DNA of 64,000 nt from Curvularia clavata (lineage: Eukaryota). Both the position numbers and the translations under genes were made by a program. Positions 2,223 to 39,530 of the stretch are shown in pieces (position 1 is the stretch's first letter; each line of letters opens with the position of its first letter). The stretch is taken from the NCBI GenBank assembly GCA_023920165.1, contig CP089276.1, positions 3,038,001 through 3,102,000 of the forward strand. The letters are read 5' to 3'. The notes beneath the pieces are model-generated. The model was given only the letters and a program-made list of their open reading frames with translations. It did no database searches and was not told the origin of the DNA.

Positions 2223-4142
2223 TCAACAACCATTCGCAGTAACAGCCCGAACAGCCACACTCTCAATCCGCTTCTTATACACCGCCATCTGGTGCTTGAG
2301 CAAATCTCCATACACAACCTTCTTCAGCATCTCCTCGTCCACCGTCACGGCTTCGACATCGTCTTCACTTCTGCTGCCCACTCGTTGCCGCAACACGACC
2401 AGTCGGCCCGCAGGCGACAAGGTAGATGGAGGGATTGGCCAAGCTGGCAGAGAAGAGGAAGAAGTCGAGTTGGTGTTATTAGTGTGCAACGACACTTTTG
2501 ACGACCTAGAGAGCCGTGCAGCAAATGGATGTTTAGATCTCGATTTTGGCGGGGACGAAGACTGCAGCTGAGAAACGTTGATCCTGGACGACGACGCCGA
2601 TGCCGAACCATGGTTCGAGGCCGGAGCGGGTGCAGGACTAGCGTACAACTTGAGCAAGCTCCGCAGCATGCTCTTGTCGGCTCTCGGTATAGGGTCGCCT
2701 TCGTTGATGAAGCTGTAGAAAAGACTCTTCCTGTGCCGTTTGTCTTCAGGCTTCTTCAGAGGCCGCAGACTGACGGGCGGTGCGCCAAAGGTGACGCAGT
2801 GCACACGCTTAAAGAAGCTGGTAAGATAGTTAAGTTCCGACTCGATTTTGGTGCTCATCATATGCGCATACAGCAACGCGGCAACAGCTCCGCCCGCGGA
2901 GTGGCCGGTGATGAGCAGACTACAGTTTGAGCGCGCGGGATTTTCCTGAAGCAGCACCTTCAGACGTTCCGCGACTGGCTTGATCATTTTCTTCGCGACA
3001 TAGAGGAAGCCTGCGTGGCACAGATTTCCTGGGTCGTCGAGAAACTTGCTTGGACTACTTGGTGCAGAATTGTAGTTGACAGCCCAGTCCATGAACGTCT
3101 GACTCCCACGAATAGCAAACACAATGGTGTTTAGCTCTTCCACAGGTATGGATTTGAGGACCATGGCCTTTGTGCCACTACGCCAGTCGGCAGGGATGTG
3201 CGTCTCCATCTCAGAACCCTTTTTAGTACCAGGGGGAATATACGCCTTTTCAGAGTACGTTGCCGCCAAACACAAGAGGGGATACGTCGGTAGATACACC
3301 TTGAAAGGGGGCAAATGGGGTGGCAGCCGCGAATTCGAGTAAAGCCATACTTTTGAGAAGTGGTTTGACCCCTTTTCACTACTGGGTTTGGGGTACACCT
3401 CCGCTCTAACAGGACGTCTCCCTTCAAGCGGCGGACTCGGTCTGGAGGTTTCCTCTTCCAGCTGATCGCCCAACTCCATCATCAAATCTTGCTCCTTTCC
3501 GCTGAACTTCTCGTCGTCAATGCTAGTAATGACAGAGTCGAACTTGGAAGTTATCACATCGTACAGTGCTGCGCCACGACACAGAGTTTGCATGCTCTTG
3601 GTGGCGACAGCAGCCGTGGGCCGCTCGATGTAGTTAGTAGTTAGCTTGTTCACACTCTTTCCAGCCGCATCACGGAGGTTTGTGTATGATTTGGCGGCCA
3701 TGCGGTCAAGGCTGTCCCACTGTTGCTGGAACGGACCCTGGCCGCGAGCCTCCGGAGGTGGCGGGGAAGCAAAGCGGATAGTGGATTGACTGGCGTATGG
3801 CTGAACAGGCTGTGGAGAAGGCGACCAATACCGCGGCACATCTTGGGGATATGATCCAGGCATTTGTCCGTAACTTGGACGCTCTGGCGGACTGGCAGAA
3901 TAGTCGTGGTGTCCTGGTGGTAGCCTAGCAGCAGGCTGAGGGAGGGACTGCTGAGAAGCCGTATACTGGGAAGGAATCTGCGAGGCTGCCTGAACGGGTG
4001 GCGCATAGTCCTGCAAGTACATTTCTCGTACCGAAGGCGAAGCATGAGACCTCTTGGATGAGGAGCGCGTCTTCGAATTCTTGGATGACGAATGCGAATG
4101 CTTCCTTCTGCTCCTGCGCTCAGTCTCGGTCGCGTGCGCCAT
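2223..4142 (-). CDS. Class 3 lipase (alpha/beta hydrolase) with long Ser/Pro-rich N-terminal region
   Basis: IVFAIRGS, CHAGF, nucleophile motif ITGHSAGG, CVTFGAPP, FINEGDPIPR. First ATG (MAHATE) at 4142; the ORF-track start at 4274 is a TTG. Confidence 0.85.
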   Translation of the reverse strand: MAHATETERRSRRKHSHSSSKNSKTRSSSKRSHASPSVREMYLQDYAPPVQAASQIPSQYTASQQSLPQPAARLPPGHHDYSASPPERPSYGQMPGSYPQDVPRYWSPSPQPVQPYASQSTIRFASPPPPEARGQGPFQQQWDSLDRMAAKSYTNLRDAAGKSVNKLTTNYIERPTAAVATKSMQTLCRGAALYDVITSKFDSVITSIDDEKFSGKEQDLMMELGDQLEEETSRPSPPLEGRRPVRAEVYPKPSSEKGSNHFSKVWLYSNSRLPPHLPPFKVYLPTYPLLCLAATYSEKAYIPPGTKKGSEMETHIPADWRSGTKAMVLKSIPVEELNTIVFAIRGSQTFMDWAVNYNSAPSSPSKFLDDPGNLCHAGFLYVAKKMIKPVAERLKVLLQENPARSNCSLLITGHSAGGAVAALLYAHMMSTKIESELNYLTSFFKRVHCVTFGAPPVSLRPLKKPEDKRHRKSLFYSFINEGDPIPRADKSMLRSLLKLYASPAPAPASNHGSASASSSRINVSQLQSSSPPKSRSKHPFAARLSRSSKVSLHTNNTNSTSSSSLPAWPIPPSTLSPAGRLVVLRQRVGSRSEDDVEAVTVDEEMLKKVVYGDLLKHQMAVYKKRIESVAVRAVTANGC

Positions 4143-4953
4143 GGTGTCCCTTCTCTGGAATATGATGTGGTGTAGATCTGGAAAAAATGATTGGCGAGGC
4201 TCCGCTATCGCGTGCAAGCGTTGGTGTTTTTTCAGCGCGATAAACGTCGACTGCCGGGTCGCGACGTATGCCAAGGCCTATTCATAGCCGCTCCGTGCTT
4301 CTTTTGTGCTAGGCGATCGAGGCATCCATGAGGACTGTAGATCTCTGTTCTTTGAGGGTGAAACGAATGTTGGGGCTAAAAGAAGGGTTCAGGGCCGCTG
4401 AGGCAAACAAAGATCGAGTCAAAGACTAGGAGGGGGGAGTGGAAGGCTCTGGAGTCTGAATGGGCGAGGCCGGAATGTTAAGAGCGGGTCGATGCAGGTC
4501 CAAGCAGCAACCGCGGCATAGCCTGGCGCTAAGCCCAACATGGCCGCTTGTAAACACGCCGCTGTGATTCGTCGACCTCATCTTGGCGCTGCACAGACCA
4601 GGCCATGCAGCTGGCCATATGCACTGTATCCACCGCTGCACACCAGAGCCTGTCGACACGTCGCACCAAGTCCGAGGCCGAGATGATGCATTTGTCGTAG
4701 CGTCGGGGTCGGTGAGAGCATCGTCTGTTGATTTGCTTCGCGTTCCTGGCGGACATGCCCCCCCGCGGGTCTGACTAACGGCCGACCTGCCTAGCGAGCC
4801 ATCTCCTACTGTCGTGGCCTACACCGCATGCGCGACATGCGGCATATGCGGTGATATCATCACATGACGATCCACGCGGGATCGAGACCTTCTTTTCAAG
4901 GCTTCCGGCAGAGAAGGTGCTAGACACGGTGTCAAGTGCTCATTTCCCGAAGA

Positions 4954-13641: not shown

Positions 13642-16037
<2,396 letters not shown>

Positions 16038-24613: not shown

Positions 24614-25714
24614 CTACTCGTAGCAGTACTCAACGTGAACCTCGAGGACACACGTGTCGTAGGCAATTGGGCGGGGGAAAGGAGCAACGACTACAGGAGA
24701 AGTCGGGTAAGCATTGGCCGGTGCAGAGGCAGAGACCGAGGACTGTTCGACCGGTGTAGCAGATACAGAAGCAGTGGGACCGTTGCCACCGCCGGTGGCT
24801 GAAGCGGTAACAGAAGCAGTGGGACTGTTGCCACCGCCAGTGACTGAAGCGGTAACAGAAGCAGTGGGACTGTTGCCACCGCCGGTGACTGAAGCGGTAA
24901 CAGTAGCAGTGGGAGTGGGGACCGCAGACGAGCTCGATGCACTGCACAGAGGCGCAACGTTGTTGATCTTGTTGACGACCCAGGACGAGGCGTCGTCAGT
25001 GTAGAGCTCGAAATAGTTGAGGTGATCGGCAACGACGTTGCCTCCAGCGCAGACTGGGTCGCCAGCTGCGCAGTAGGAGCGGAGGACAGGAGCGTAGCGG
25101 TTCAGGCGGGCGAGGTCGGAGGCCGAGCGAGGGTTCTTCTCCTTGCTGGCACCGTCGAGCACGTTATAAGGCTGGTTGGCGGTGTGCATAACATCACCCC
25201 ACAGGAGAGCCGCGGCAACTAATTCAAGTCAGTACAGATCATAAACCACAAATCAATACATATACTTACTAGCTTTGCCAGCAGATGAGGTGCTGTCAAG
25301 ACCGTTGGAGACGAATGTGCAACCGCCAGGACCTCCCAGCACATCACCCATAACGTGGGCACCCTCAGAGTAACCATTGACCACAATGTGCGAGCAAGGG
25401 CACTTCTGGTTGAAAGCGGTAATCTGAGAGATACCGTTGCGGGCACCCTCAGCCACCTGAGCGCAGTAGTCTCCACCAAGAGTGACATCGAACTGGACAT
25501 CAATGTAGTCGCAGGTCTTGCCCTCGGCCCTCAACTTGCTGCAGGTCGCCTCAACAAAGGGAAAGGTACGTCCGTCGTGGTAAGGGGCGTCGTTGCCACG
25601 GGCCATGAAGATGACTACATCGGCGCAGCTGGCCTCCAGCTTGGGGGGAGTGGTTTGAGCCGCGGCGAGAGCGGACAGGGCGCCCAGAGCAATGGTGTTG
25701 CGGATGAAAGACAT
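24614..25714 (-). CDS. Secreted carbohydrate esterase family 5 (acetylxylan esterase/cutinase-like) with Ser/Thr-rich tail
   Basis: Signal peptide MSFIRNTIALGALSALAAA; C.DV.IFMARG, GYSEGA, LLWGDV.H..NQPYNV, SYC..GDPVC...H..Y; intron 25219-25269. Confidence 0.88.
24765..24914. repeat. Coding 45-bp tandem repeat, about 3.3 copies (PTASVTASVTGGGNS)
   Basis: Unit ACAGAAGCAGTGGGACYGTTGCCACCGCCRGTGRCTGAAGCGGTA starts at 24765, 24810 and 24855, with a partial copy at 24900. Confidence 0.95.
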
Positions 25715-26502: not shown

Positions 26503-27874
26503 TCACTCCAACTTTTCATGGCTCTCCCTGATGGCCTGACCGTAATCTCCTGCATTTGGTGTCCGCACAATAGTATGAGTATGGTACTTGGCCGGCTCCT
26601 TGTTCGTCAAGAAAACACCAGAATGGTGGTCGAATTCCACCAAGATAACCGGGCTTTGTATGCGAAAGTAGAAGGCGTCATCGTCGCCGAAGCCACCGAT
26701 CCAGCAAAAGTACGTTTCGTCAAGGTGTTGCTTGATTTGCTTGAGCTTTAGCTCACGAGCCTTGGAGGGATGGTAGAGAAGAAACTCGTGGCATATGGAT
26801 AAGATGAGATCTTGTTCAGCGTTATTCAACGAAGAGGCGCAAATGCCTTCGTATGGAACAATGCGATTGTCACGGAAGGCGCCGCAGCGGTGGCGTTGAT
26901 CGTCGGGGCCCCAGGTGTCAGTGATGAGCTCGTCGCGTTTACTCTCATCATTGTTGGAGTTGCCATAGACTTGCTTCATGCCCTCGTCTCTCATCTTCTT
27001 GAAGATTTGAGCCTTCTGCTGCTGCTCTGCGCTCAGGCTCTGCATAAGCTTCAGGCCCAAATTGCCTTCTTTGTGCAGGATCTGGGTCCCTTTCCACTCG
27101 CCCTCATCGATGATATTGGGCTCGGCGCCAGTGAAGGACGGACTGAGCACAACTTGAGACCCCTTAAAGAAGCATGCGATATCGAGGTGGTGGCCGTATA
27201 GTAGCCAACCCCATGGTGAACTCGCGGATGCAGAGGGCGTCCCAAACAACAAGAAGTTGTAGGAATACTTGTTCATGATGTTCGGAAGCTTGACCACCTC
27301 TCCCAGAAAGTGGTTGATGCGCATGGCGGACAGTGCCTTTTGATAGCCTTCCGGTGACAGGGACGCTTCTATCACGGCGAGTATTGCCTGCGCGGTCGTG
27401 TCCGGTACTAAGCAGGTTAGCATGGTGTTGCAGCTTTTCCTTCGTGGACAAATTACCTTCCTCGAGTCTCAAACCGAACGGTCTCAGGAGAAACTCCGGG
27501 TTGCTCCATGCGCGCCATTCTCTTGCGTTGATCGGATAAGACAACTTCTTTTTCTTCTCATTGTCCAGGCCCCTGAGTAGCTCTTCTGCTTTTGCGACGG
27601 CGCCCTGAACATCCGCGCCTTCATCTCGCGCCTGGAAGAGACCTGGTCGTACTTTGCCGTCGTTGGTAACGCCTGTGTACGGCTCTTCCAACAGCTTCTC
27701 CCATACCTTTGTCAAGTCGTACAACCATGGCGGTGCACGGTTATCTTGCATTGACTGGACATATTCGTAGATGTTTTGTTTCGCAGCAGTTGTGAAGCGC
27801 GGACTGCTGAGATCTGGCAGATGGGCTCGAAAGCCAGCCGAGGCTTGATCGAAGGAGCTTCGCCGGTCCGTCAT
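26503..27874 (-). CDS. DUF3500 family protein, about 440 aa, 2 exons
   Basis: WxxWSNPE, SLS.EGY.K, YGHHL (the family GHH motif), YFRIQSPV..VEFDHH, HTHTIVRTPN.GDYG; intron 27408-27456. Confidence 0.82.
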
Positions 27875-29253
27875 GTTTGCGTAGCACTGAGCTTGCTGTT
27901 TACAGGCGATCTGATGTAGTGTTGCTTGCTCCACAGCACTTCTCAGTACTGTTGCGCAATTAACGTGCTACGGTGCCAGATTTTGCCCCGAAGCCCACGT
28001 AATTGATGTGTTGACTATCGAAGGTTGTCTACTGGGTACCCACAGCGGCCGGATGAAGGCTCTTCCTAGAGATCTGATGGCTCACGTTCGCACGAGTCTG
28101 TCACGCAGAGCGAATTCAGGTACGAACAGAGAGAACGGATTCCAAACTCCTGCCAGCTCATGAGGCAGTTAGTGACTTGACAGTATCTTCGGAGCTGACA
28201 CGGAAGTCACCCCACAATTGGCTTTTAACTTTTAGCGCGGGGTAGTCGGCCCCCCATTGCGTCGCTGTAGTGGGGACTGGTGTCTGTTTGCTAGAATCTG
28301 TTGTTATATTGTGTGTAGAGTACAAATACATATACGTATTGTCAGGATAACCCATGGAATAGCTGCTGGTGAACTTGCATCGTGGCAGCTGAGGAAGAGT
28401 GTCGCTGCCCCCAAACATGTCAAACCCCAAATCGAACGACCTTAGAGCTCATGTAGTGTGTAAACTCTAGGTAACTACATGAAGATATCGTTGGTTGCGT
28501 GATGGATTTGGGTGGTGTAATTGTGGAGAAATGCATGTAGCCTTTCTATCCTACAGACTGCACAATCGTATCAGGTCAAAACATTCGGGTGTGGTTCTGT
28601 ATCCTCTAGGGCGGGCGCAGAACATGATTTTTGATGTGAATAGCTCCCTGCAGATTGCGGATGCTCGGGAAAGCAGCTAGCGTCTGTAAGGGGCTGTGCG
28701 GGACTCAGCTTACCGTCCAGGAGCTTGGTGTCTCTCCGCAAACGCCGAAATGTGGTCATCAACATCAGAGTCGGCGGTGGGGCGAGGGACAAGAGAATCG
28801 CTCTGAGTAGCCCCGCCCGTGGTGGGGTACCTGGCTAGTACAACGATCCCCAGACATGCGTGCACGTGAAGTAGGAAGTATCCCTGGTATATATTTATCA
28901 GCTACCTTCGCCCAATTACAGATGGTCCAGTATCACCATCGCGGCTTCGCCCAATTGAGACTGACAGAAAGTAACAGCTCCGGTTAAGACATCTTCCGGC
29001 ACTCCGGATATTACGCGCTGACAGAAACTGTGGGGTGTTGTGGGGAGCAGCTCTAACTAGGCAGAACACGATAAGACCGCGTAGAACCGACTACATAGTG
29101 AGACTACCTCTTGGTGAATTGAAACTCGACCAGTTGTTATAACATCGTCAGCAATTCGCGACTTTGCTGCCATCTCGGGCATTCTCTTTCGGTTGAAACG
29201 TTAAAACCAATCAACTACCTATTGTCTGATCTAAAGTCGCCCTAATATACGAT

Positions 29254-30652
29254 ATGGCGGAAAACATAAGGATAGCCATTGTTGGCGCAGGTATGCTTCT
29301 GTTAGACCATATGTACACTTCTCGTCGCGTCTTCTAACCGTCTCTCAGGCATGGGCGGCCTCGCCGCAGCACTTGCCCTTGCAAAAGCTGGCCACCAAAA
29401 CATCACCATATACGAAAATGCCCCAGGCATGGGCTTCGTAGGCGCAGGAATCCAGCTCGCACCCAACATGGCTCGCATCCTTGACAGGCTAGGCTGCTGG
29501 GGTGTAATCCGTGACGAGGCTGTTCGGTGCTCAACCACATCGATCAGGGAGGGCGCAACAGACAAAGAGCTATCGCACGTAGATCTGGCCTACGTCAAGG
29601 AAAAGTACGGATATCCGCATATGGTTGGCCACAGAGCCAGCCTTGCGAACGGCTTGTATGAGGGCTGCAAGCGGGAGAGCGGTATCCAGTTCAAGCTAGG
29701 ATGCACCGTATCTGATGTACGCTTCGGTCCCAAGCCCAAGTTTACCATCACCCCCTCCCAGGGCGGTGCGGAGCCATATCAGGTCGAATGCGATGTTCTC
29801 CTTGGTGCCGATGGTGTCAAGAGCTCTACCCGCGTGGCCATGCTCAAGGAACTGGGGCACACAGGCGCAGCACGCGATTCAGGCCAAGCCGCTTACCGCA
29901 TCATGCTCAACCGCTCACAAATGGAACACGATCCCGAGCTTCTGAAGCTGATCGATTCAGACTGTGTAACACGCTGGATTGGTGAGAAGAGGCACATCAT
30001 CGCATACCCCATCCACAACAAGCAGATCTACAACATCTCTACCGCACAGCCAGACACCAACTTTGCTGGTGCGCCAGATGCACAGTACACGACAAAGGGG
30101 AGTAAGAAGGCCATGATGGAAGTGTACGGTGACTTTTGTCCCATGATTCAGCGCATGCTCAACTTGGTGCCAGAGGGTGAGGTGGTCGAGTGGAAGCTCA
30201 GAGTCCACGACCCGCTGGTAACGTGGGTGCACGGCCCGGCCGCACTGGTGGGTGATGCATGCCATCCGACTCTTCCACACATGGCACAAGGCGCTGCGCA
30301 GGCTATTGAAGACGGTGCTGTACTCGGTGTCGTCCTGTCACCCCAGCGACTTGGAGATGCTGCGCCCGAAACGATTGAGCGCGCACTGCGTATATACGAA
30401 AAGCTGAGGAAGCCAAGAGCCGAAGCACTGGTGGAGCTGGCGGCAGAGAGTGGACGAGTGCTGCACTTGGGTGCTGGTAAAGCGAAGGAGGAGAGAGATA
30501 AGCTGTTCGAGGCGGCAAAGAGTGGTCTTGGCAAAGTGCCAGACAAATGGGCGGATGCTGATGTGCAGGCTCAAGTATATGGTGTTGATGTAGTTGCCGA
30601 TGCGGAGGAACTGTGTGAAAAGGAAGGATTTGGGCTGAGATCGAGACTGTGA
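29254..30652 (+). CDS. FAD-dependent aromatic monooxygenase (salicylate hydroxylase-like, group A), 2 exons, C-terminal SRL
   Basis: IAIVGAGMGGL (spliced across intron 29291-29348), GAGIQL.PN, GADGVKS, LVGDACHP.LPHMAQGAAQAIEDG. Confidence 0.92.
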
Positions 30653-30920
30653 CAATGAATGAGATATCCAGTTGGATGTCTGAATAAACAATGTATATTT
30701 TGAGAACTACTTTGAATCGCAAAAGTACTTGTGTACTATAATTATCCATGGGAACTACCCAAAGAGAAGTTTGGTTCGCTCCACAGGAAATGAAAGTGCC
30801 GTAGTAAGCACACCCATGGCTAAGGACACAGAAAATAATAGATGACTGTGGCAACTGCAGCCGCCTTTCATGCAAGCTACCATTTTCAGGTTTTGCTAGT
30901 TGTGAGAGAGCTCAGGCATT

Positions 30921-32535
30921 CTACATGCTCTCCGACATAACGCCTCTCATGTTATGCCCCTTCCAATGCGTAAGCATAACCGGCAGCAAACTAACACCAA
31001 CAACCAACGCAGCAGCAACACCTGCACTATTCGCGATACCAACATGTTCAAACATAGCCGGGAACCAAAAGGGCCCCAAGAAGCCCCAGATCTGCCTCAC
31101 AAATGTGATGAAAACGCCAATGCTACCAGCCTCCTCGGGGTAACAGTCAACCGCGTACGTGATCAACACGGTAGTGACAATCTGGTTTCCAGCTGCTGCG
31201 ATGCCCGCACCCACAATCGGCGTGACATTCCATCTGAGTTCGGGAGCCTGCTCGATGCGAACCAAGAACACAACGATGCCGCATATAGTCAACAGAATAC
31301 CGATGTAAGACAGCCAGAGACGAAACTCTGGTGCGGGACGAAGCGGTGCCGTTTTCTTTCCTCGCCAGCGCATCCAGAGGTCACTCGAGTGACCGCCGAT
31401 CTGCTCGCCGATCACTGTTCCGACGATGATGCCGAGGAACTGGAGGCCGATTTGCTGCGCGTTGAGGTGGAACTTTTGAATGAAGAGTTGGGGGATTTCG
31501 ACGGTAGTGAGCACCGAGGCGAAGAGGAAGATCATGGCGTATGCGCAGGCGGGGATGACAATACAGGGGTACTTGAAGAAGCGAAGGGGAGAGATGAATT
31601 CATACAGCGTCATGGGCGTAGTGTCAATGCGGCGGAATTTTAAGTACATTTCCTTGTAGGCTGCGAAGCCTGACTGCGCGTGCTTGGCGTCACCGTGTCG
31701 CATAAAGCGTGTCTCTGGGCCGAAGAGTGAGTAGAGAATGAGCTGGGCGCCGTTGATCATGGCAAGGATCCAGTAGATCCAGCGGTAGCCCACGTTGTAT
31801 GTTACGAAGCCGAAGATGAGGGGCGCCAGTGGTATACCCAGAGTGATCATGACGGTCCACATGCCCATGAACTTTGCACGCTCTTTGCGGAAGAAAGTCT
31901 CCACTACTACGGCGCTGCCAATGGCGTTGGGTGGACAGATAAAAAAGGACTGGAACGCGCGGCACGTTGCCATGGCTGCGTATGTTTGGCTTTTTGCACA
32001 GCCAATGTTGAACACCAGGCTTCCGATCAGTGAGATGATGAAGATGGGACGACGGCCGTATCGAGTTGAGAGAGGGCGCCAGAACAACGGCCCGCCGCCC
32101 AGAATGGCAATTTGAAGAGAGGTAAGGTATGATGCTTTTTGAATGCTCACACCAAGGTCTTCGGATATCTCCTCGTATGCTGGGATGATGGCGGATGCTG
32201 GAAAGGCACACATCATGGCGTGAAAAGCCACGAAAAGTACGTTCATGATTTTCTGATTCGGAATTAGAGAGAGTTGTCAGTGAAGGATTGTGAGGGTAAC
32301 TGACCTTCCACTGGGGCCAGTTGTACGGGTCGGCAGTCCCCATGGTAGGAAGAGGGTCAAGATCGATTGTTCCATGACGCTCGAGGAGGTATTGGCGATG
32401 CTCTTCAGAGAGGTGAGATACCTCCTCCTTGTCGAGATATGTACCGTGGGTGGCGGCATGCTCGAGATCCTCATTATGCCTGGGCTCGTTGGCTACGAGG
32501 TCCTTTTCGTTTGCTGCATTTATTGGGTTCGCCAT
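30921..32535 (-). CDS. MFS transporter (DHA1-like), 2 exons
   Basis: DPYNWPQWKK, PLSTRYGRRP, ERAKFMG.W, WIYWI, PET, PEFRL; about 12 hydrophobic segments; intron 32253-32304. Confidence 0.92.
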
Positions 32536-32680
32536 GTTCGTCGTCTACAGCTTGTACGAAGGACGATGAAAGTGAAGAAGGCGAAGAAGAGACACGCAAG
32601 CTCCAACGTGGACATGCCCGCGGAGGCTCCATCTCATATCCTCCACTCTCTACGCTAGTTCCCCGGGAGATGACTTACGC

Positions 32681-32798
32681 GGAGACCCCGACTGGAGATC
32701 CCAGCAGAGAAATCTGAGTGGAGACCTCAGGGCATAGAAACCCCAGTGGAGACCCCAGATATAAGAGTTATTGGTGGGATGTGAGCCCACGGGGTTTC
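32681..32798. promoter_or_regulatory. Cluster of GGAGACCCCAG-like direct repeats upstream of the MFS gene
   Basis: GGAGACCCCG 32681, GGAGATCCCAG 32694, GGAGACCTCAG 32720, GAAACCCCAG 32737, GGAGACCCCAG 32748, and inverted GGGGTTTC 32791. Confidence 0.5.
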
Positions 32799-33730
32799 TA
32801 AACAAGGATCCTGAGCCATCGTCGTCACGGTTCCATCGCTAGTTTCTGCTATTACGCTAGTTGATCCACGGCTTGTCAACTCGGCAGCCGCGCATCGGAT
32901 GCTTGAATTGCCCACAGAGGATTGTTGAGGACCCAGTAGGATTCTAGATAACAAGCGGATGATGGCGGCGTGTTGGCCATAGTGACAGGAGAATGGTCGC
33001 AGACCGGAAGATAATCGTCTTGCAATTATCGCAAATCGCTTGACCTGCGATTGGATGGCCCTCCGCATATTGATGGTTAGAGATGCTTGCAATGACGCCA
33101 CCCGTACTCAAGCTTTATAGCAATGCTTGGTTGGCAGGCAAGGCTTGGGTTCAGGTGAACAGCCGCATTTCTTCTGGCCATGGCACTGGTACGTACCGTC
33201 CATGTTTTGGGTTAGAGCAATTAGGACTTGATTGGTTCGTGTCTCTGATGGCGTGGCCGCGGGCGAACAATGAGGCGGGGCTCAAAACAGACGGCAGTTG
33301 TTCTCGATAAAATACAGTGGGTCACCGAGGTTGTGACACGAAAGTGATTCGTATAGTCGGTATATGTTGCTATCAGCTAGTTCCCGGACTTCTTCCGGGA
33401 TCCTCCCGACGATCTGCACAAACGCCCCGACTTTCATGTAACAGTGGTTTGTACAAAACCCACATATCTTCTCCTTTTTTTTCTTTCAGAAGTTGGTCGC
33501 CCAAATCATCTTCTAGCATCTAACTTTGATTAAGTAGAAAGATGAGTCACGAAAACGCGAAGACGCTCTACAACTTCAGATAACACCAAGAGCTTCAGCA
33601 GGTAATGCCATGTCATTGAATGTGTCGGTCTAAAGCCTCCCCTAAAAACTGCCCGTCGGCTCCTTGCTGCCTTCATAGATAAAGCCCATATGCAATACGC
33701 ATGTTGATGCAGCCAAACCCTGCTCTGAAA

Positions 33731-34183: not shown

Positions 34184-35154
34184 GTTGAGATTCAAAAGAG
34201 TATTCAATGGTTGAGATGATGGCTAATCACGCATTCAACACGAGATAATTATGGCGGCTGAGTGCTTGCTGGATAATGTCATAGGGAAACTTGTTATTTG
34301 GAAAAACCAAGCAACCAGACCGGCTCTTGCCACCATTCAGCTGCCATTTGATATGGTTGGTGAAAATTAAAAGTGTTTGATAATAAACTGGTGACAACAA
34401 GGTCTTAATTGCGCCAAGGTTTGGTTCTTGTTTTTCCTAAGACAAATATTTGCTGCCTAAGAACTTGTAAGTTCTTTTTTACCCCTCTGCACTCTAGGGT
34501 TACCTCCCTCAGATATGCCGTCTTATGTTTCGACTTCGCACGGCTCCCAAAAGTTGCCGGCACGTGATGTTGGCTGTTCATCGGCAAAGCTGTTATCCAT
34601 AGGCGAAACAAAGTCAACGAGCTCCAAAGCTGGAGCAATGGATGATGAGAGAGGGTTTGCTTGAAATTGTAGTTTACGGCGTGGATGTGGCAATTAGAGT
34701 GAACGTGCTGAAAAGTTGTACTAACCTTCTTACGGGACCTTCTCTTGCTCCGTACGTGGGGTCTTACAAGCTTCCCAAGGCGAAAAAAGAGCAGAAAAGG
34801 ATTGAATTGGTTTATACACAGATTTTCCACAAGTGATTCAATGTGAATGCGCCTCAACCTCGCGAGAGGTACTGCGCATGCACGAGAGGCATCCTTTCCC
34901 CACTTATTAGTAGGCCTGCATGTCTTTCCGTCAAAGCCAAGAACACAGCACACAGGCAGCACCCTCAGCTCACAACACATTGATTCTCTACCCTTCTTTA
35001 CAATATATCAGCATACGCATTCATTATACACTCTTTTTATATTTGGCAGATCCATTCATAGCCGAAGGGGAGAGCAGGGATAGGAACGTGCAATCAGGCT
35101 GCCAAGTTCAGCCTCAAGATTTGTTCTTATTAACCTACACGCCTATACGAACTC

Positions 35155-38100
35155 ATGCGGCTGCTGCAGTACAGCGGAAGCGGAGAACTCAGCGTCCATA
35201 GCTTTGGAGATGGCGACGTACCTCCTTATGCGATACTCTCACATACCTGGGGAGCGGATGGGGAAGAGGTGACCTTTGCAGATCTTCAAACGGGTCATGG
35301 AAGAACTAAGCCAGGTTATGAGAAGATAATCTTCTGCGCAAGACAGGCAGGAAATGCCGGGCTTCAGTACTTCTGGATTGACACATGCTGCATCGATACA
35401 TCCGACAAGGCTGAGCATTCCTGGTCGATACGATCCATGTTCCGCTGGTATCGCTTTGCAGCCCAGTGCTATGTCTACCTGCCAGATGTATCCACTGATG
35501 ATATATCTGTACAGTCCAGTTGGGAGCTTGCATTTCGGTCGAGTCGATGGTTTACCCGTGGCTGGACGCTTCAAGAGCTTCTTGCTCCATCTTCGGTCGA
35601 ATTCTTCTCGCGGGAGGGAGAAAAGCTTGGTGATAGGGTGTCACTCGCGCCCTTGATCAACAAAATTACTGGAATTCCGCCTCTGGTGCTCAATGGGACT
35701 CCAATTTTCCAATTCAGCATAGATGATAGGTGGCGGTGGGCAGAAGGCCGAATCACTAGACGCAGTGAGGATCGAGCATACTCTCTGCAGGGCATCTTCG
35801 GCGTCGAAATAGCGCCTGTGTATGGCGAGGGCGAGTCTGGCGCTTTTGATCGCCTCAAGCGTGAGATCTACAAGCTAGAGAGATGCCTAGAAGACATGCG
35901 CAGTACAGATCCGCGCGACGACAAAAGGCGCATTGAAGATACCAAAGGCGGACTGGTAACAGACTCGTACCGTTGGGTACTCGGAAATACTGAATTCAGG
36001 CAGTGGCATGAGGACCAACACAGTAGGCTACTTTGGGTGAAAGGCGATCCCGGCAAAGGAAAGACAATGCTCCTGTGTGGCATCATCGACGAACTGCAAA
36101 ACTTGCCGAGATGCACCCTCGTGTCCTACTTTTTCTGTCAGGCGACTGACTCGCGTATTAATAGTGCTACAGCTATATTACGAGGCTTACTCTACATGCT
36201 CATCGTTCAGGAACCGTCGCTGGTAGCTCACGTTCGCGAGAAGCACGCCCATGCAGGCGGGAGTTTGTTCAACGACGCTAACGCTTGGATCGCCTTGACA
36301 GAGATCTTTTTCCACATTGTGCAGAATGCGAGCGTAAGCCCAATATACCTAATTATTGATGCGCTTGATGAATGTATCAGCGACCAACCAAAGCTACTTA
36401 AATTCATCGCCGACCAGTCATCAGTGTCCTCTCGCGTCAAGTGGATCTTATCTAGTCGCAATTGGCCTACTATCGAAGAACAGCTAGAGCGTGCGGAGTA
36501 CAAGACAAGGCTAAGCCTTGAGTTAAACGCCGAGTCTGTCGCGACAGCGGTGAGGATCTTCATACAGCAGAAGGTCGGCCAGCTAGCGCAAGAAAAGCGA
36601 TATACACCAGAAATTCAAGATAGTGTTCTCCAGCACTTGACACTGAACTCAAACGATACATTTCTCTGGGTTGCACTTGTCTGTCAAGACCTCAAAGCAA
36701 CGCCGAAGTGGAATGTACTCAAGAAGCTAGCGCACTTTCCCCCTGGACTTGACTCTCTATATAGGCGGATGCTGCTTCAAATTAGACAGTCCGAAAGCGC
36801 TGAGATCTGCCTGGGTGTACTAGCAGTTACGTGTATCCTGTATCGGCCTGTTACAGTCACTGAACTGGTTGCGCTCGCGGAACAGATTGCGGGATTTGAC
36901 GAGGACTTGGAGTCAGTTCGGGAGATCATCGGTCTCTGTGGGTCATTTCTTACCCTCCGGGGAGATACAGTCTACTTTGTGCATCAATCAGCTAAAGATT
37001 TCCTCTTTGAAAAATCGCTTAACGAGGTATTTCCACAAGGGCTTCGAAGTCTGCATCGAGACATCTTTATGAAGTCTCTTACCCTGCTGCACAAGGTACT
37101 GTGTAGAGACATGTACAGTCTCGAAAAACCCGGATATCGCGTAGAAGACGTCATTCCACCCTCCCCAGATCCATTGGCTTTGTCACGCTATCCATGTGTC
37201 TATTGGATCGATCATCTTTGCGACTCGAGACTCGAGACCTCGGATCACAATGGTAACAATGTCGAAGATGCCCATCTTGTAGATTCTTTTATGAGACGAA
37301 AGTACCTATACTGGCTAGAGGCGCTCAGTTTGTGCAGGAGCATGGAAAATGGAGTGGTCTCCATGATAAAACTATCACATTTAGTCCAGGTAACAGCTCA
37401 CACAACTACATGCATCTGTAGTCTTTATGATACAACTGCTAACACGAATAGAAAATGGCTGAGAAAGACGCAGTGACCACGAGCGTTACTGATGCGCAAC
37501 GATTTATCATGTATCATAAAAACGCGATCGAGAATTATCCACTACAAGCATACGCGTCTGCTCTATTGTTTAGTCCAACAGACAGCTTGATAAGGATGCT
37601 ATTCCAGCATGAAGCACTAGAGAAGATGACAATCAAGCCTGCTACAAACCATAGTTGGGGTGCCTGTCTGCAGACACTCAATGGGAGTAGCCTCTGGGCC
37701 TACTCGGTAGCTTTCTCACGCGACTCGACCCGGATAGCGGCAGGATACGGTGATAGTACTGTGAAGATATGGGATGCAAGCAGCGGTATATGCATGCACA
37801 CGCTTGAGGGCCATAATCGTGCTGTTCAATCAGTAGCTTTCTCTCATGATTCAAGGCTAGCGTCAGGATCAGATGATGGGACAATAAAGGTGTGGAATGC
37901 GAGCAGTGGGACATGTCTGCAGACGTTAGAGAGCCATCGCAGCGTCGCTTCAGTAGTATTCTCACATGACTCCGCCCGTATAGCGTCATCAGGGTTGGAC
38001 AATACTGTCAAGGTATGGGACACAACCAGTTGGACATGTCTACTGATGCTTGAGGGCCAGAGCGGCATGATCATGTCAGTAGCATTTTCACACGACTCCA

Positions 38101-39530
38101 GCCGGATAGCATCTGGGGCGCGCGATGGTACTGTAAAGATATGGGACACGAATAGTGGCGTATGCCTGCAAACTCTCGAAGATCACGGTAACGAGATCAC
38201 GTCAGTAGTATTCTCACACGACTCAACCCAGATCGCGTCAGCGACATATAACAGCCCCCTGAAGATATGGGACGTGAGAACCGGAATATGTTCACAGATG
38301 ATTGGGGACACTCGCGTTGCTGTCAAGACAGTGATATTCTCACATGACTCGGCATGGCTAGCTTCAGGAACAACAGATAGTACTATCAACATATGGGATG
38401 CAAGAAGTGGGGCATGCCTGCACACGTTTGAAGGGCATACTGGCGATGTCACTTCACTAGCACTGTCGCACGATTCAAAGTGGCTTGTGTCCGGTTCGGA
38501 AGAAGGCGCTGTCAAGCTATGGGATGCAAGCAGCAGAGACCTTCGCCAAGCGCCTGGAAGCCATCGTGGTTATGTCGCTTCAGTGACCTTCTCGAGCGAC
38601 CTAGCCTGGTTAATCTCCCGGGGAACAGACCAATCCATCAGAATATGGGACGTAAGCACCGGTATATGCCTACATATATTTGAAAGAGAGGATTTGCACA
38701 TGCCCGGCTCTGAAGACGATGACATTGAATCAGTAACCATCTCTCCCAATTCGGCCTGGCTAGTATCGGCTTCACGTTGCGGACATATTACGCTGTGGGA
38801 TTTGAGCACCAAGACTTGCTCGCAGGTACTTGAAGGTTTGCAAAATGGTACTTGGCAGCCAGTAACGATTTCATCCAATTCTGCTTATTTAGCATTCGCA
38901 TCGAGTGCCGCGTCCCTGTTCGATGACGACCTCATCAAGATCTGGGACATAAGCAACGGGATGTGTTTGCAGAGTATTACAGCTCAGGATCGTGCAATCT
39001 GCTTGTTGGCCCTCTCCCACGACTCAGCTTGGCTAGTCTCAACTTCATTCCAGGCTACCAGGATATGGGATGTGAGCAGTGGGGTTTGCTTGCGCATGAT
39101 TAAAAGAGACTATAGCAAATATATCTACTCAATAGCATTGTCACCAGACTCGGCCTGGCTAGCGGAATCAACATTCGAAAACACTATCAGGATATGGAAT
39201 ACTAGTAGTTGGGAGTGTCAACATGTTTTGGATGTTGACACATGGTCTTCAACCTTGTCTTTCGACCCCACTGGTACTTTGCTTCATACGGACATGGGTG
39301 CTATCACGATCCCTAATCTTGAAGTTCCAAGCAGTACAGGTACCGCAAAGTCCGAAGCATATTATAAGGGTATTAATGTAACAAAGGATGGTACCTGGAT
39401 ATTCCGCGATGGAAACAACATAGTGTGGATTCCCTATGAGTACTGGTCGAGGCACGTGTTTGTGAGTGGGGCTCACATAGGTATGGGGTTACCATCAGGA
39501 AGAGTCTGGATTTTTCATATAGATGAGTAA
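35155..39530 (+). CDS. Fungal NLR-like STAND protein, HET-NACHT-WD40 (HNWD/HET-E-like), about 1437 aa, 2 exons
   Basis: HET: YAILSHTWG, WIDTCCID, SMFRWY, WFTRGWTLQEL. NACHT: Walker A GDPGKGKT, YFFCQ, Walker B LIIDALDEC, FLWVAL, VHQSAKDFL. Intron 37390-37451 joins the two ORFs in frame; about 12 WD40 repeats follow. Confidence 0.95.
37660..39290 (+). repeat. WD40 coding repeat array, about 12 diverged units of roughly 126 bp plus a cryptic one
   Basis: Recurring CxQTLEGH..V.SV.FSHDS..IAS...D.T.KIWD..SG units; recurring nucleotides TTCTCACAYGACTC and AAGATATGGGA. Confidence 0.9.

Follow-up and report, generated by a model that had tools for sequence, protein, structure and literature searches.

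Background

Growth of Aspergillus on gallate depends on four gallate-induced genes (Martins et al. 2024, PMC10832562), and here we describe a related locus in a 64,000-nucleotide stretch of Curvularia clavata DNA (contig CP089276.1, positions 3,038,001 to 3,102,000; hereafter the window, with positions counted from its first letter), in which a DUF3500 gene, a flavoprotein monooxygenase gene and a gene for a major facilitator superfamily (MFS) transporter lie side by side. The four Aspergillus genes encode a monooxygenase (AN4576/ATEG_05726b), a DUF3500 protein (AN10530/ATEG_08221-22), a short protein with no domain (AN0331/ATEG_04855) and an FAH-like protein. Knockout of the DUF3500 gene leads to a build-up of 1,2,3,5-tetrahydroxybenzene (THB), and the authors hypothesise that DUF3500 is the THB ring-cleavage enzyme. 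For the Ascomycota, the same paper reports three cluster types with one monooxygenase each, often together with DUF3500, the short gene, the FAH-like gene, an MFS gene and a transcription factor; its Table S6 includes clusters from Bipolaris, Alternaria, Exserohilum and Parastagonospora, with no Curvularia and no gene names. The pathway is repeated in a 2025 review (PMC12388069), where the dioxygenase is still 'putative', and in FAMeDB 2026 (PMC13094099).

The window locus is a trimmed copy of this published type of gallate-breakdown cluster. As this kind of cluster and the role assigned to DUF3500 are both already in print, the locus is no discovery in itself: a first-pass annotation of the window had put the cluster forward as a candidate undescribed one and taken DUF3500 to be uncharacterised, but clusters of DUF3500, monooxygenase and MFS genes are reported in PMC10832562, and the knockout placed DUF3500 at THB in gallate catabolism. 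With a probability of about 0.8, we read the locus as the gallate-entry part of the fungal THB pathway, where DUF3500 would cleave the THB ring with O2 by means of a metal site of His and Glu residues. A structural template for DUF3500 (ApmL), a conserved peroxisomal targeting signal on the monooxygenase and a two-module layout of the genome, all presented below, were not found in the accessible text of the gallate-pathway papers cited.

Locus structure and proposed pathway

The main features of the locus are as follows.

26503..27874, minus strand: DUF3500 (PF12006) gene, 440 aa, exons 27874-27457 and 27407-26503; predicted THB ring-opening enzyme by homology to AN10530/ATEG_08221-22
27875..29253, no strand: divergent intergenic region, without the short no-domain gene here; some relatives hold the short gene in the corresponding interval
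29254..30652, plus strand: group A flavoprotein monooxygenase gene, predicted PhyA/GacA type, 446 aa, intron 29291-29348; PF01494 E 3.3e-14
30921..32535, minus strand: MFS_1 transporter (PF07690) gene, 520 aa, intron 32304-32253

The DUF3500 gene has one 49-nt intron (27456-27408), and both of its exons match PF12006 (Pfam, E 3.6e-10 and 6e-98), with scores of 40.3 and 328.5 bits that both exceed the gathering cut-off of 27.2. The spliced monooxygenase model is letter for letter the protein P0271, whose source label is Curvularia clavata yc1106_04756. DUF3500 and the monooxygenase are divergent, with 1379 bp between their start codons, while the monooxygenase and MFS genes converge. Splicing was checked on contigs of four of the 20 listed public runs, which are presumed, not recorded, to be RNA: all three predicted introns are absent, at the predicted places, from contigs of runs X1 and X5, and two of the three are skipped in each of the X18 and X9 contigs, the DUF3500 intron being skipped in X1, X5 and X18. 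Gene models, Pfam matches and intron-skipping contigs thus agree with the three genes, positions and orientations of the first-pass annotation, and its 270-bp gap between monooxygenase and MFS genes measures 268 bp between the stop codons.

In the proposed pathway, the PhyA/GacA-type monooxygenase would exchange the carboxyl group of gallate (and of protocatechuate) for a hydroxyl group at the expense of NAD(P)H and O2, releasing CO2 and thereby turning gallate into THB. Ring opening of THB would then fall to DUF3500, most likely a metalloenzyme that uses O2 and has its ligands among H212/H213, E397/D399 and H415/H417. Later steps, by the short no-domain protein and an FAH-like hydrolase, would depend on genes of a second cluster, located on contig C4 of the same genome, and the MFS protein would import the substrate or export a toxic intermediate. 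In NCBIfam, this protein comes closest to drug:H+ antiporter-like models, none of which reaches its cut-off. Tannase-family genes are present in the genome. For the window copy, we infer the same substrate as in the Aspergillus pathway, the metal site, the use of O2 and the role of the MFS protein.

The product of DUF3500 would be the C6 lactone named 5-hydroxydienelactone in PMC10832562, for which NMR values of 5.57 and 6.81 ppm (J 2.2 Hz) and a carbon at 94 ppm are given in the legend of Figure 7. The reported lactone has the composition of THB with O2 added and water removed; forming it would thus call for a step that adds oxygen, beyond what a dehydratase alone provides. Presumably the NMR values fit the isomer 4-hydroxy-2-pyrone-6-carboxylate better; both isomers need the same addition of O2.

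Conservation of the gene neighbourhood

Linkage was assessed in 33 metagenome loci, of which ten have at least 4 kb upstream of DUF3500 and were usable. All seven usable loci with a close DUF3500 (77-87% identity) carry a divergent monooxygenase (70-85% identity), and the three with a distant DUF3500 (51-53% identity) have no such monooxygenase; the seven include two near-identical pairs and correspond to about five independent loci. Since the divergent pair is kept in 7/7 close loci, its linkage is more than chance. Additionally, for 19 of the 22 species present in both homologue lists, the longest contig is equal in size for DUF3500 and the monooxygenase (hand count), and in three of these 19 the two genes have near-adjacent locus tags; the other three species comprise two multi-strain clusters and Delitschia. 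Both comparisons thus bear out the linkage in other genera whose absence would have refuted the first-pass annotation. The MFS gene comes next in four of the five close loci with room for it (L004, L006, L011, where it is disrupted, and L016). In L011, at 3529-4383, about 190 codons of this gene are gone, and the monooxygenase, short gene and DUF3500 appear intact.

The seven close loci probably all come from one fungal order, and the three genes could accordingly be neighbours by inherited Pleosporales synteny without a shared function, the MFS protein being an unrelated efflux pump; its resemblance to drug:H+ antiporters and its absence or breakage in some relatives would suit such an origin. 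However, the genes past DUF3500 vary among relatives while the DUF3500-monooxygenase pair persists, and in Aspergillus genes of these types are induced together and needed for growth on gallate even though they are unlinked (PMC10832562). We therefore consider synteny without shared function highly improbable for the locus as a whole, and plausible for the MFS gene only.

The trimming of the cluster can be followed in the short gene. It is intact between DUF3500 and the monooxygenase in L011, L013/L014 and L016, while L004 (5450-5980) and the same region of L006 hold a decayed copy with frame breaks and stops (0/100 shuffles reach the L004 score), and neither L036 nor the window has one. The decayed copy in L004/L006 is an intermediate stage, with the gene intact in L011/L013/L016 and lost altogether from the window. 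Within 27875-29253, nhmmer found no remnant of the short gene, and protein alignment scores there were reached by 24-92 of 100 shuffles. A likeness to the short gene seen by eye near 28480-28680 was ruled out, as shuffles score as well and nhmmer gave no match.

The monooxygenase

On indirect but consistent evidence, the window monooxygenase is predicted to be a decarboxylating gallate/protocatechuate 1-monooxygenase of the PhyA/GacA type (AN4576, ATEG_05726b, NRRL3_04659). Group A flavoproteins carry the fingerprints GxGxxG, DG and GD, and these are found at aa 11, 163 and 314. The closest solved structures are the decarboxylating 4-hydroxybenzoate/vanillate 1-hydroxylases 8r2t, 8gsm and 8x38 (E 1e-61 to 1e-56), with salicylate hydroxylase structures far weaker (E 1e-28, half the score of the 1-hydroxylases).

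The type was assigned by scoring peptides from published Aspergillus quantitative PCR primer pairs (12 residues per pair) against six of the eight matched monooxygenase regions of the genome (G000). The window monooxygenase is the best of the six regions for the peptides of ATEG_05726b (53 vs at most 38) and AN4576 (58 vs at most 34), and the monooxygenase of the C4 cluster for those of ATEG_08220 (57 vs at most 38); the ATEG_08831 peptides clearly fit none of the six. A salicylate 1-monooxygenase of the NahG/ShyA type was rejected, since the bacterial model TIGR03219 gives 147.7 bits, below its cut-off of 446.35, and the 1-hydroxylase structures are closer. 'Salicylate-hydroxylase-like', the description in the first-pass annotation, is thus a database label, and the enzyme groups with PhyA/GacA by primer peptides and nearest structures.

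PhyA turns over protocatechuate in vitro (PMC8262893; its acceptance of this substrate is also recorded in PMC13094099), belongs to a clade apart from Mnx1, Mnx2 and the salicylate hydroxylases (PMC8262893), and its deletion abolishes growth on gallate (PMC10512348).

The DUF3500 protein

Three motifs noted in the first-pass annotation are indeed present, and their conservation was counted in 109 homologues.

27187..27195, minus strand: GHH motif, aa 211-213 (H212, H213), in the first repeat of the fold; H212 in 107/109 and H213 in 108/109 homologues; kept in PDB 9x86
26623..26637, minus strand: EFDHH motif, aa 397-401; E397 in 102/109, D399 in 96/109, H400 in 89/109 and H401 in 79/109; 9x86 keeps E and D and neither His
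26572..26583, minus strand: HTHT motif, aa 415-418; H415 in 100/109 and H417 in 98/109; both kept in 9x86

Among the histidines of the three motifs, conservation is lowest for the two of EFDHH, H401 being kept in 21 of 51 distant homologues.

A fold model was made for the Bipolaris homologue P0001, which is 87% and 91% identical to the window protein over the two exons (pLDDT 95.5, pTM 0.94). HHalign shows the DUF3500 fold to be built by internal duplication (probability 90, E 1.4e-6), and the only solved relative of the model is PDB 9x86 (Foldseek E 1.5e-16; VIA Z 20.5, root-mean-square deviation 2.8, 253 residues aligned; profile match E 4.5e-49), the next structural match having a Z of 3.5. 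This entry, released in April 2026, is known by its title, 'dehydratase ApmL in amipurimycin biosynthesis', and literature searches found no paper on ApmL/Amc20. The Foldseek and VIA matches listed for DUF3500 include no known dioxygenase fold (intradiol, VOC, LigB or cupin), which leaves room for an unlisted family; a search of the ESM Atlas leaving out PF12006 gave no usable match. In the model, E397/D399 and H415/H417, which are common to 9x86, would occupy alternate positions on neighbouring strands, and conservation together with this predicted register suggests that His and Glu side chains may converge at a metal site. Because 9x86 shares H212, H213, E397, D399, H415 and H417, ring opening by DUF3500 now has a crystal template and six residues to mutate.

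The same template lends itself to a different assignment within the same pathway, in which DUF3500, like ApmL, would work as a Lewis-acid dehydratase, a lactonising enzyme or a tautomerase. Its substrate would then be an oxidation product of THB that arises spontaneously or through a different enzyme. A titled dehydratase is the only structural match and keeps the six site residues, loss of water through lactonisation is part of the THB pathway, and THB, an easily autoxidised compound, was detected in the knockout only when ascorbate was present (PMC10832562). It is, however, THB itself that accumulates in that knockout. Further, growth of A. niger on gallate survived deletion of 17 annotated ring-cleavage genes (PMC12388069, PMC10512348), which leaves DUF3500 as the candidate for ring opening. 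H400/H401, which are absent in ApmL, could provide an extra function, and likeness in fold to a protein known by its PDB title does not determine which reaction DUF3500 catalyses. We consider the dehydratase-like assignment unlikely, though worth keeping in view, and retain ring opening with O2 as the preferred role of DUF3500.

Predicted peroxisomal targeting

30641..30649, plus strand: C-terminal S-R-L, predicted peroxisomal targeting signal type 1 (PTS1) at the end of the monooxygenase

The PTS1 consensus is [SAC][KRH][LM]. Among monooxygenase homologues, 85/120 end in this pattern, which suggests a peroxisomal location of the enzyme, and a canonical PTS1 is found in only 2/120 DUF3500 homologues. 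At the DUF3500 C-terminus (window 26503-26520), 109/120 homologues end in x-[KRH]-L or in [KR]-L plus one residue; this pattern differs from the canonical PTS1 and is possibly a weak or relic targeting signal. The PTS1 conserved here differs from the published accounts of PhyA/GacA (PMC8262893, PMC10512348), whose main text does not mention peroxisomes, nor does that of PMC10832562. A full-text search, with most subscription journals outside it, found no paper joining a peroxisomal PTS1 with the Aspergillus gallate monooxygenase.

A second DUF3500 cluster in the genome

The genome holds a second DUF3500 gene, 54% identical to the window copy, within a fuller cluster.

G000:C4:148700-169800 (L037:2408-9730, L038:598-9998, L039:546-4804): C4 DUF3500 cluster, fuller gene set

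Its genes are a quercetinase-like cupin, an esterase, a sugar-type MFS transporter, the ATEG_08220-type monooxygenase, the short gene, a Zn2Cys6 factor, the FAH-like gene and DUF3500, with a rhamnosidase and a GH3 glucosidase on its flanks. The short gene, recognised by eye from AN0331 primer peptides and a conserved Ser motif, has its single genome match here, as does the FAH-like gene its best. By its gene content, the C4 cluster appears to cover the entire path from flavonol glycosides through 2,4,6-trihydroxybenzoate to THB, a prediction modelled on the breakdown pathway of rutin. DUF3500 has a quercetinase-like neighbour in L021 and L026 as well, but not in L022. Quercetin, rutin and flavon- are not mentioned in the main text of PMC10832562, and no paper combining quercetinase, trihydroxybenzoate, rutin and a gene cluster was found by full-text search, again with most subscription journals outside.

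The window locus has neither the short nor the FAH-like gene, whose presence in the same cluster is described as 'often', and is non-obligatory, in PMC10832562; genome-wide, all four essential gene types are present. The module for transport, hydroxylation and ring opening of a plant phenolic that the first-pass annotation proposed thus holds in part: published genetics and conserved linkage favour it, but two further essential genes lie on another contig.

A quick tree of 47 rows places the C4 copy of DUF3500 (clade support 99) and the window copy (clade support 87-94) in sister clades. Two such clades in one genome, the loss of the short gene from the window locus and the acceptance of protocatechuate by PhyA (PMC8262893, PMC13094099) would also suit a window module devoted to a hydroxybenzoate other than gallate (protocatechuate, 3-O-methylgallate or syringate), with the C4 cluster handling THB proper. 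We regard this as quite improbable: the short gene of the THB pathway is kept inside the same locus in L011, L013/L014 and L016, and deletion of GacA affected only gallate and tannic acid (PMC10512348). Gallate entry thus stays the preferred role of the window locus.

A wider combination of these ideas is tentative, with the odds somewhat against it. In this combination, DUF3500 would be a new ring-cleaving oxygenase scaffold of two repeats, in which the site shared with ApmL is turned to O2 chemistry, perhaps through a gain of H400/H401, and carries out both ring opening and lactonisation; Pleosporales would have split the pathway into a gallate module with a peroxisomal monooxygenase, represented by the window locus, and a flavonol-glycoside module on C4; and the C4 monooxygenase would be the as yet unassigned 2,4,6-trihydroxybenzoate 1-monooxygenase.

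Several observations weigh against reading the locus as gallate entry with ring opening by DUF3500. The dioxygenase activity of DUF3500 is only hypothesised even in PMC10832562, and its only solved relative, 9x86, is titled a dehydratase. The window DUF3500 shares only 54% identity with its C4 paralogue, the two belong to separate clades, and primer peptides of the A. terreus DUF3500 gene match the C4 clade better (L026 64 vs window 37), so the knocked-out DUF3500 gene may instead be orthologous to the C4 copy; the AN10530 peptides are uninformative between the two clades. A peroxisomal monooxygenase would be kept apart from a DUF3500 protein without a canonical PTS1. The MFS gene is absent from L014, one of the five loci with room, and broken in L011. 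Monooxygenase typing used short primer peptides, not full Aspergillus sequences, and the enzyme functions given for this organism are predictions from sequence and structure comparison.

Other features of the window

Two further features in the non-coding DNA of the locus are candidate regulator sites.

About 28202-28257: conserved non-coding element near the DUF3500 promoter, candidate regulator site, 75% to L004/L006
32682..32760, no strand: GGGGTCTCC-like motif, repeated about five times in the upstream region of the MFS gene; candidate sites for a regulator by presumed function

The GGGGTCTCC-like motif is also found upstream of the MFS gene in L004, L006 and L016, but not in L011. SYGGRG sites number 14 in 27875-29253, and other tiles have up to 12; enrichment of this motif was dropped as a signal, being too weak and post hoc.

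A cutinase-family (acetylxylan-esterase-like) gene with a Ser/Thr-rich repeat tail lies at 24614-25714 on the minus strand, 790 bp downstream of DUF3500; among the fetched loci it is linked only in L031, so it is probably outside the cluster. A peroxidase-family gene (PF00141) with the C-terminus R-P-R-L, which resembles a catalase-peroxidase, is located at 13642-16037 on the plus strand. A HET-NACHT-WD40 gene of the fungal NLR-like type (35134-39530, plus strand) is unrelated to the cluster.

Significance and comparison with known systems

A genome with two DUF3500 paralogues represents a natural test of separate entry modules for gallate and for flavonol-derived 2,4,6-trihydroxybenzoate. If entry through two modules is true, it names the monooxygenase still missing from the published THB scheme. 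Further, the breakdown of gallate and tannins is relevant to plant-litter turnover and to lignin valorisation.

Among solved structures, the closest to DUF3500 is ApmL/Amc20 (9x86), whose fold matches that of the window protein (Z 20.5, 24% identity) and which also carries its GHH, E-x-D and H-x-H residues. It is, however, a bacterial, biosynthetic protein of 297 aa, titled a dehydratase, and is without the 85-residue N-terminal part and H400/H401 of DUF3500. The decarboxylating 1-hydroxylases (PDB 8gsm, 8r2t, 8x38) would share the reaction type of the window monooxygenase and are its closest solved structures, yet they are distant relatives. PhyA/GacA itself (A. niger NRRL3_04659, A. nidulans AN4576, A. 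terreus ATEG_05726b) is of like length, with 446 aa here versus 448 aa from a 1347-bp coding sequence; it is unlinked to DUF3500 in Aspergillus and clustered with it here.

At the level of gene clusters, the C4 cluster mirrors the A. terreus ATEG_08219a-08222 locus (PMC10832562). The window DUF3500 shares the PF12006 family and the pathway neighbours of AN10530/ATEG_08221-22, although the A. terreus gene lies in an ATEG_08220-type locus and the window copy in the sister clade. Compared with the ATEG_05726b (PhyA)-type THB clusters of PMC10832562, the window locus lacks the short gene, the FAH-like gene and the transcription factor, and its genome has two DUF3500 paralogues versus one in A. terreus; it has the same clustering of DUF3500, a PhyA-type monooxygenase and an MFS gene, in a genome that holds all four catabolic gene types.

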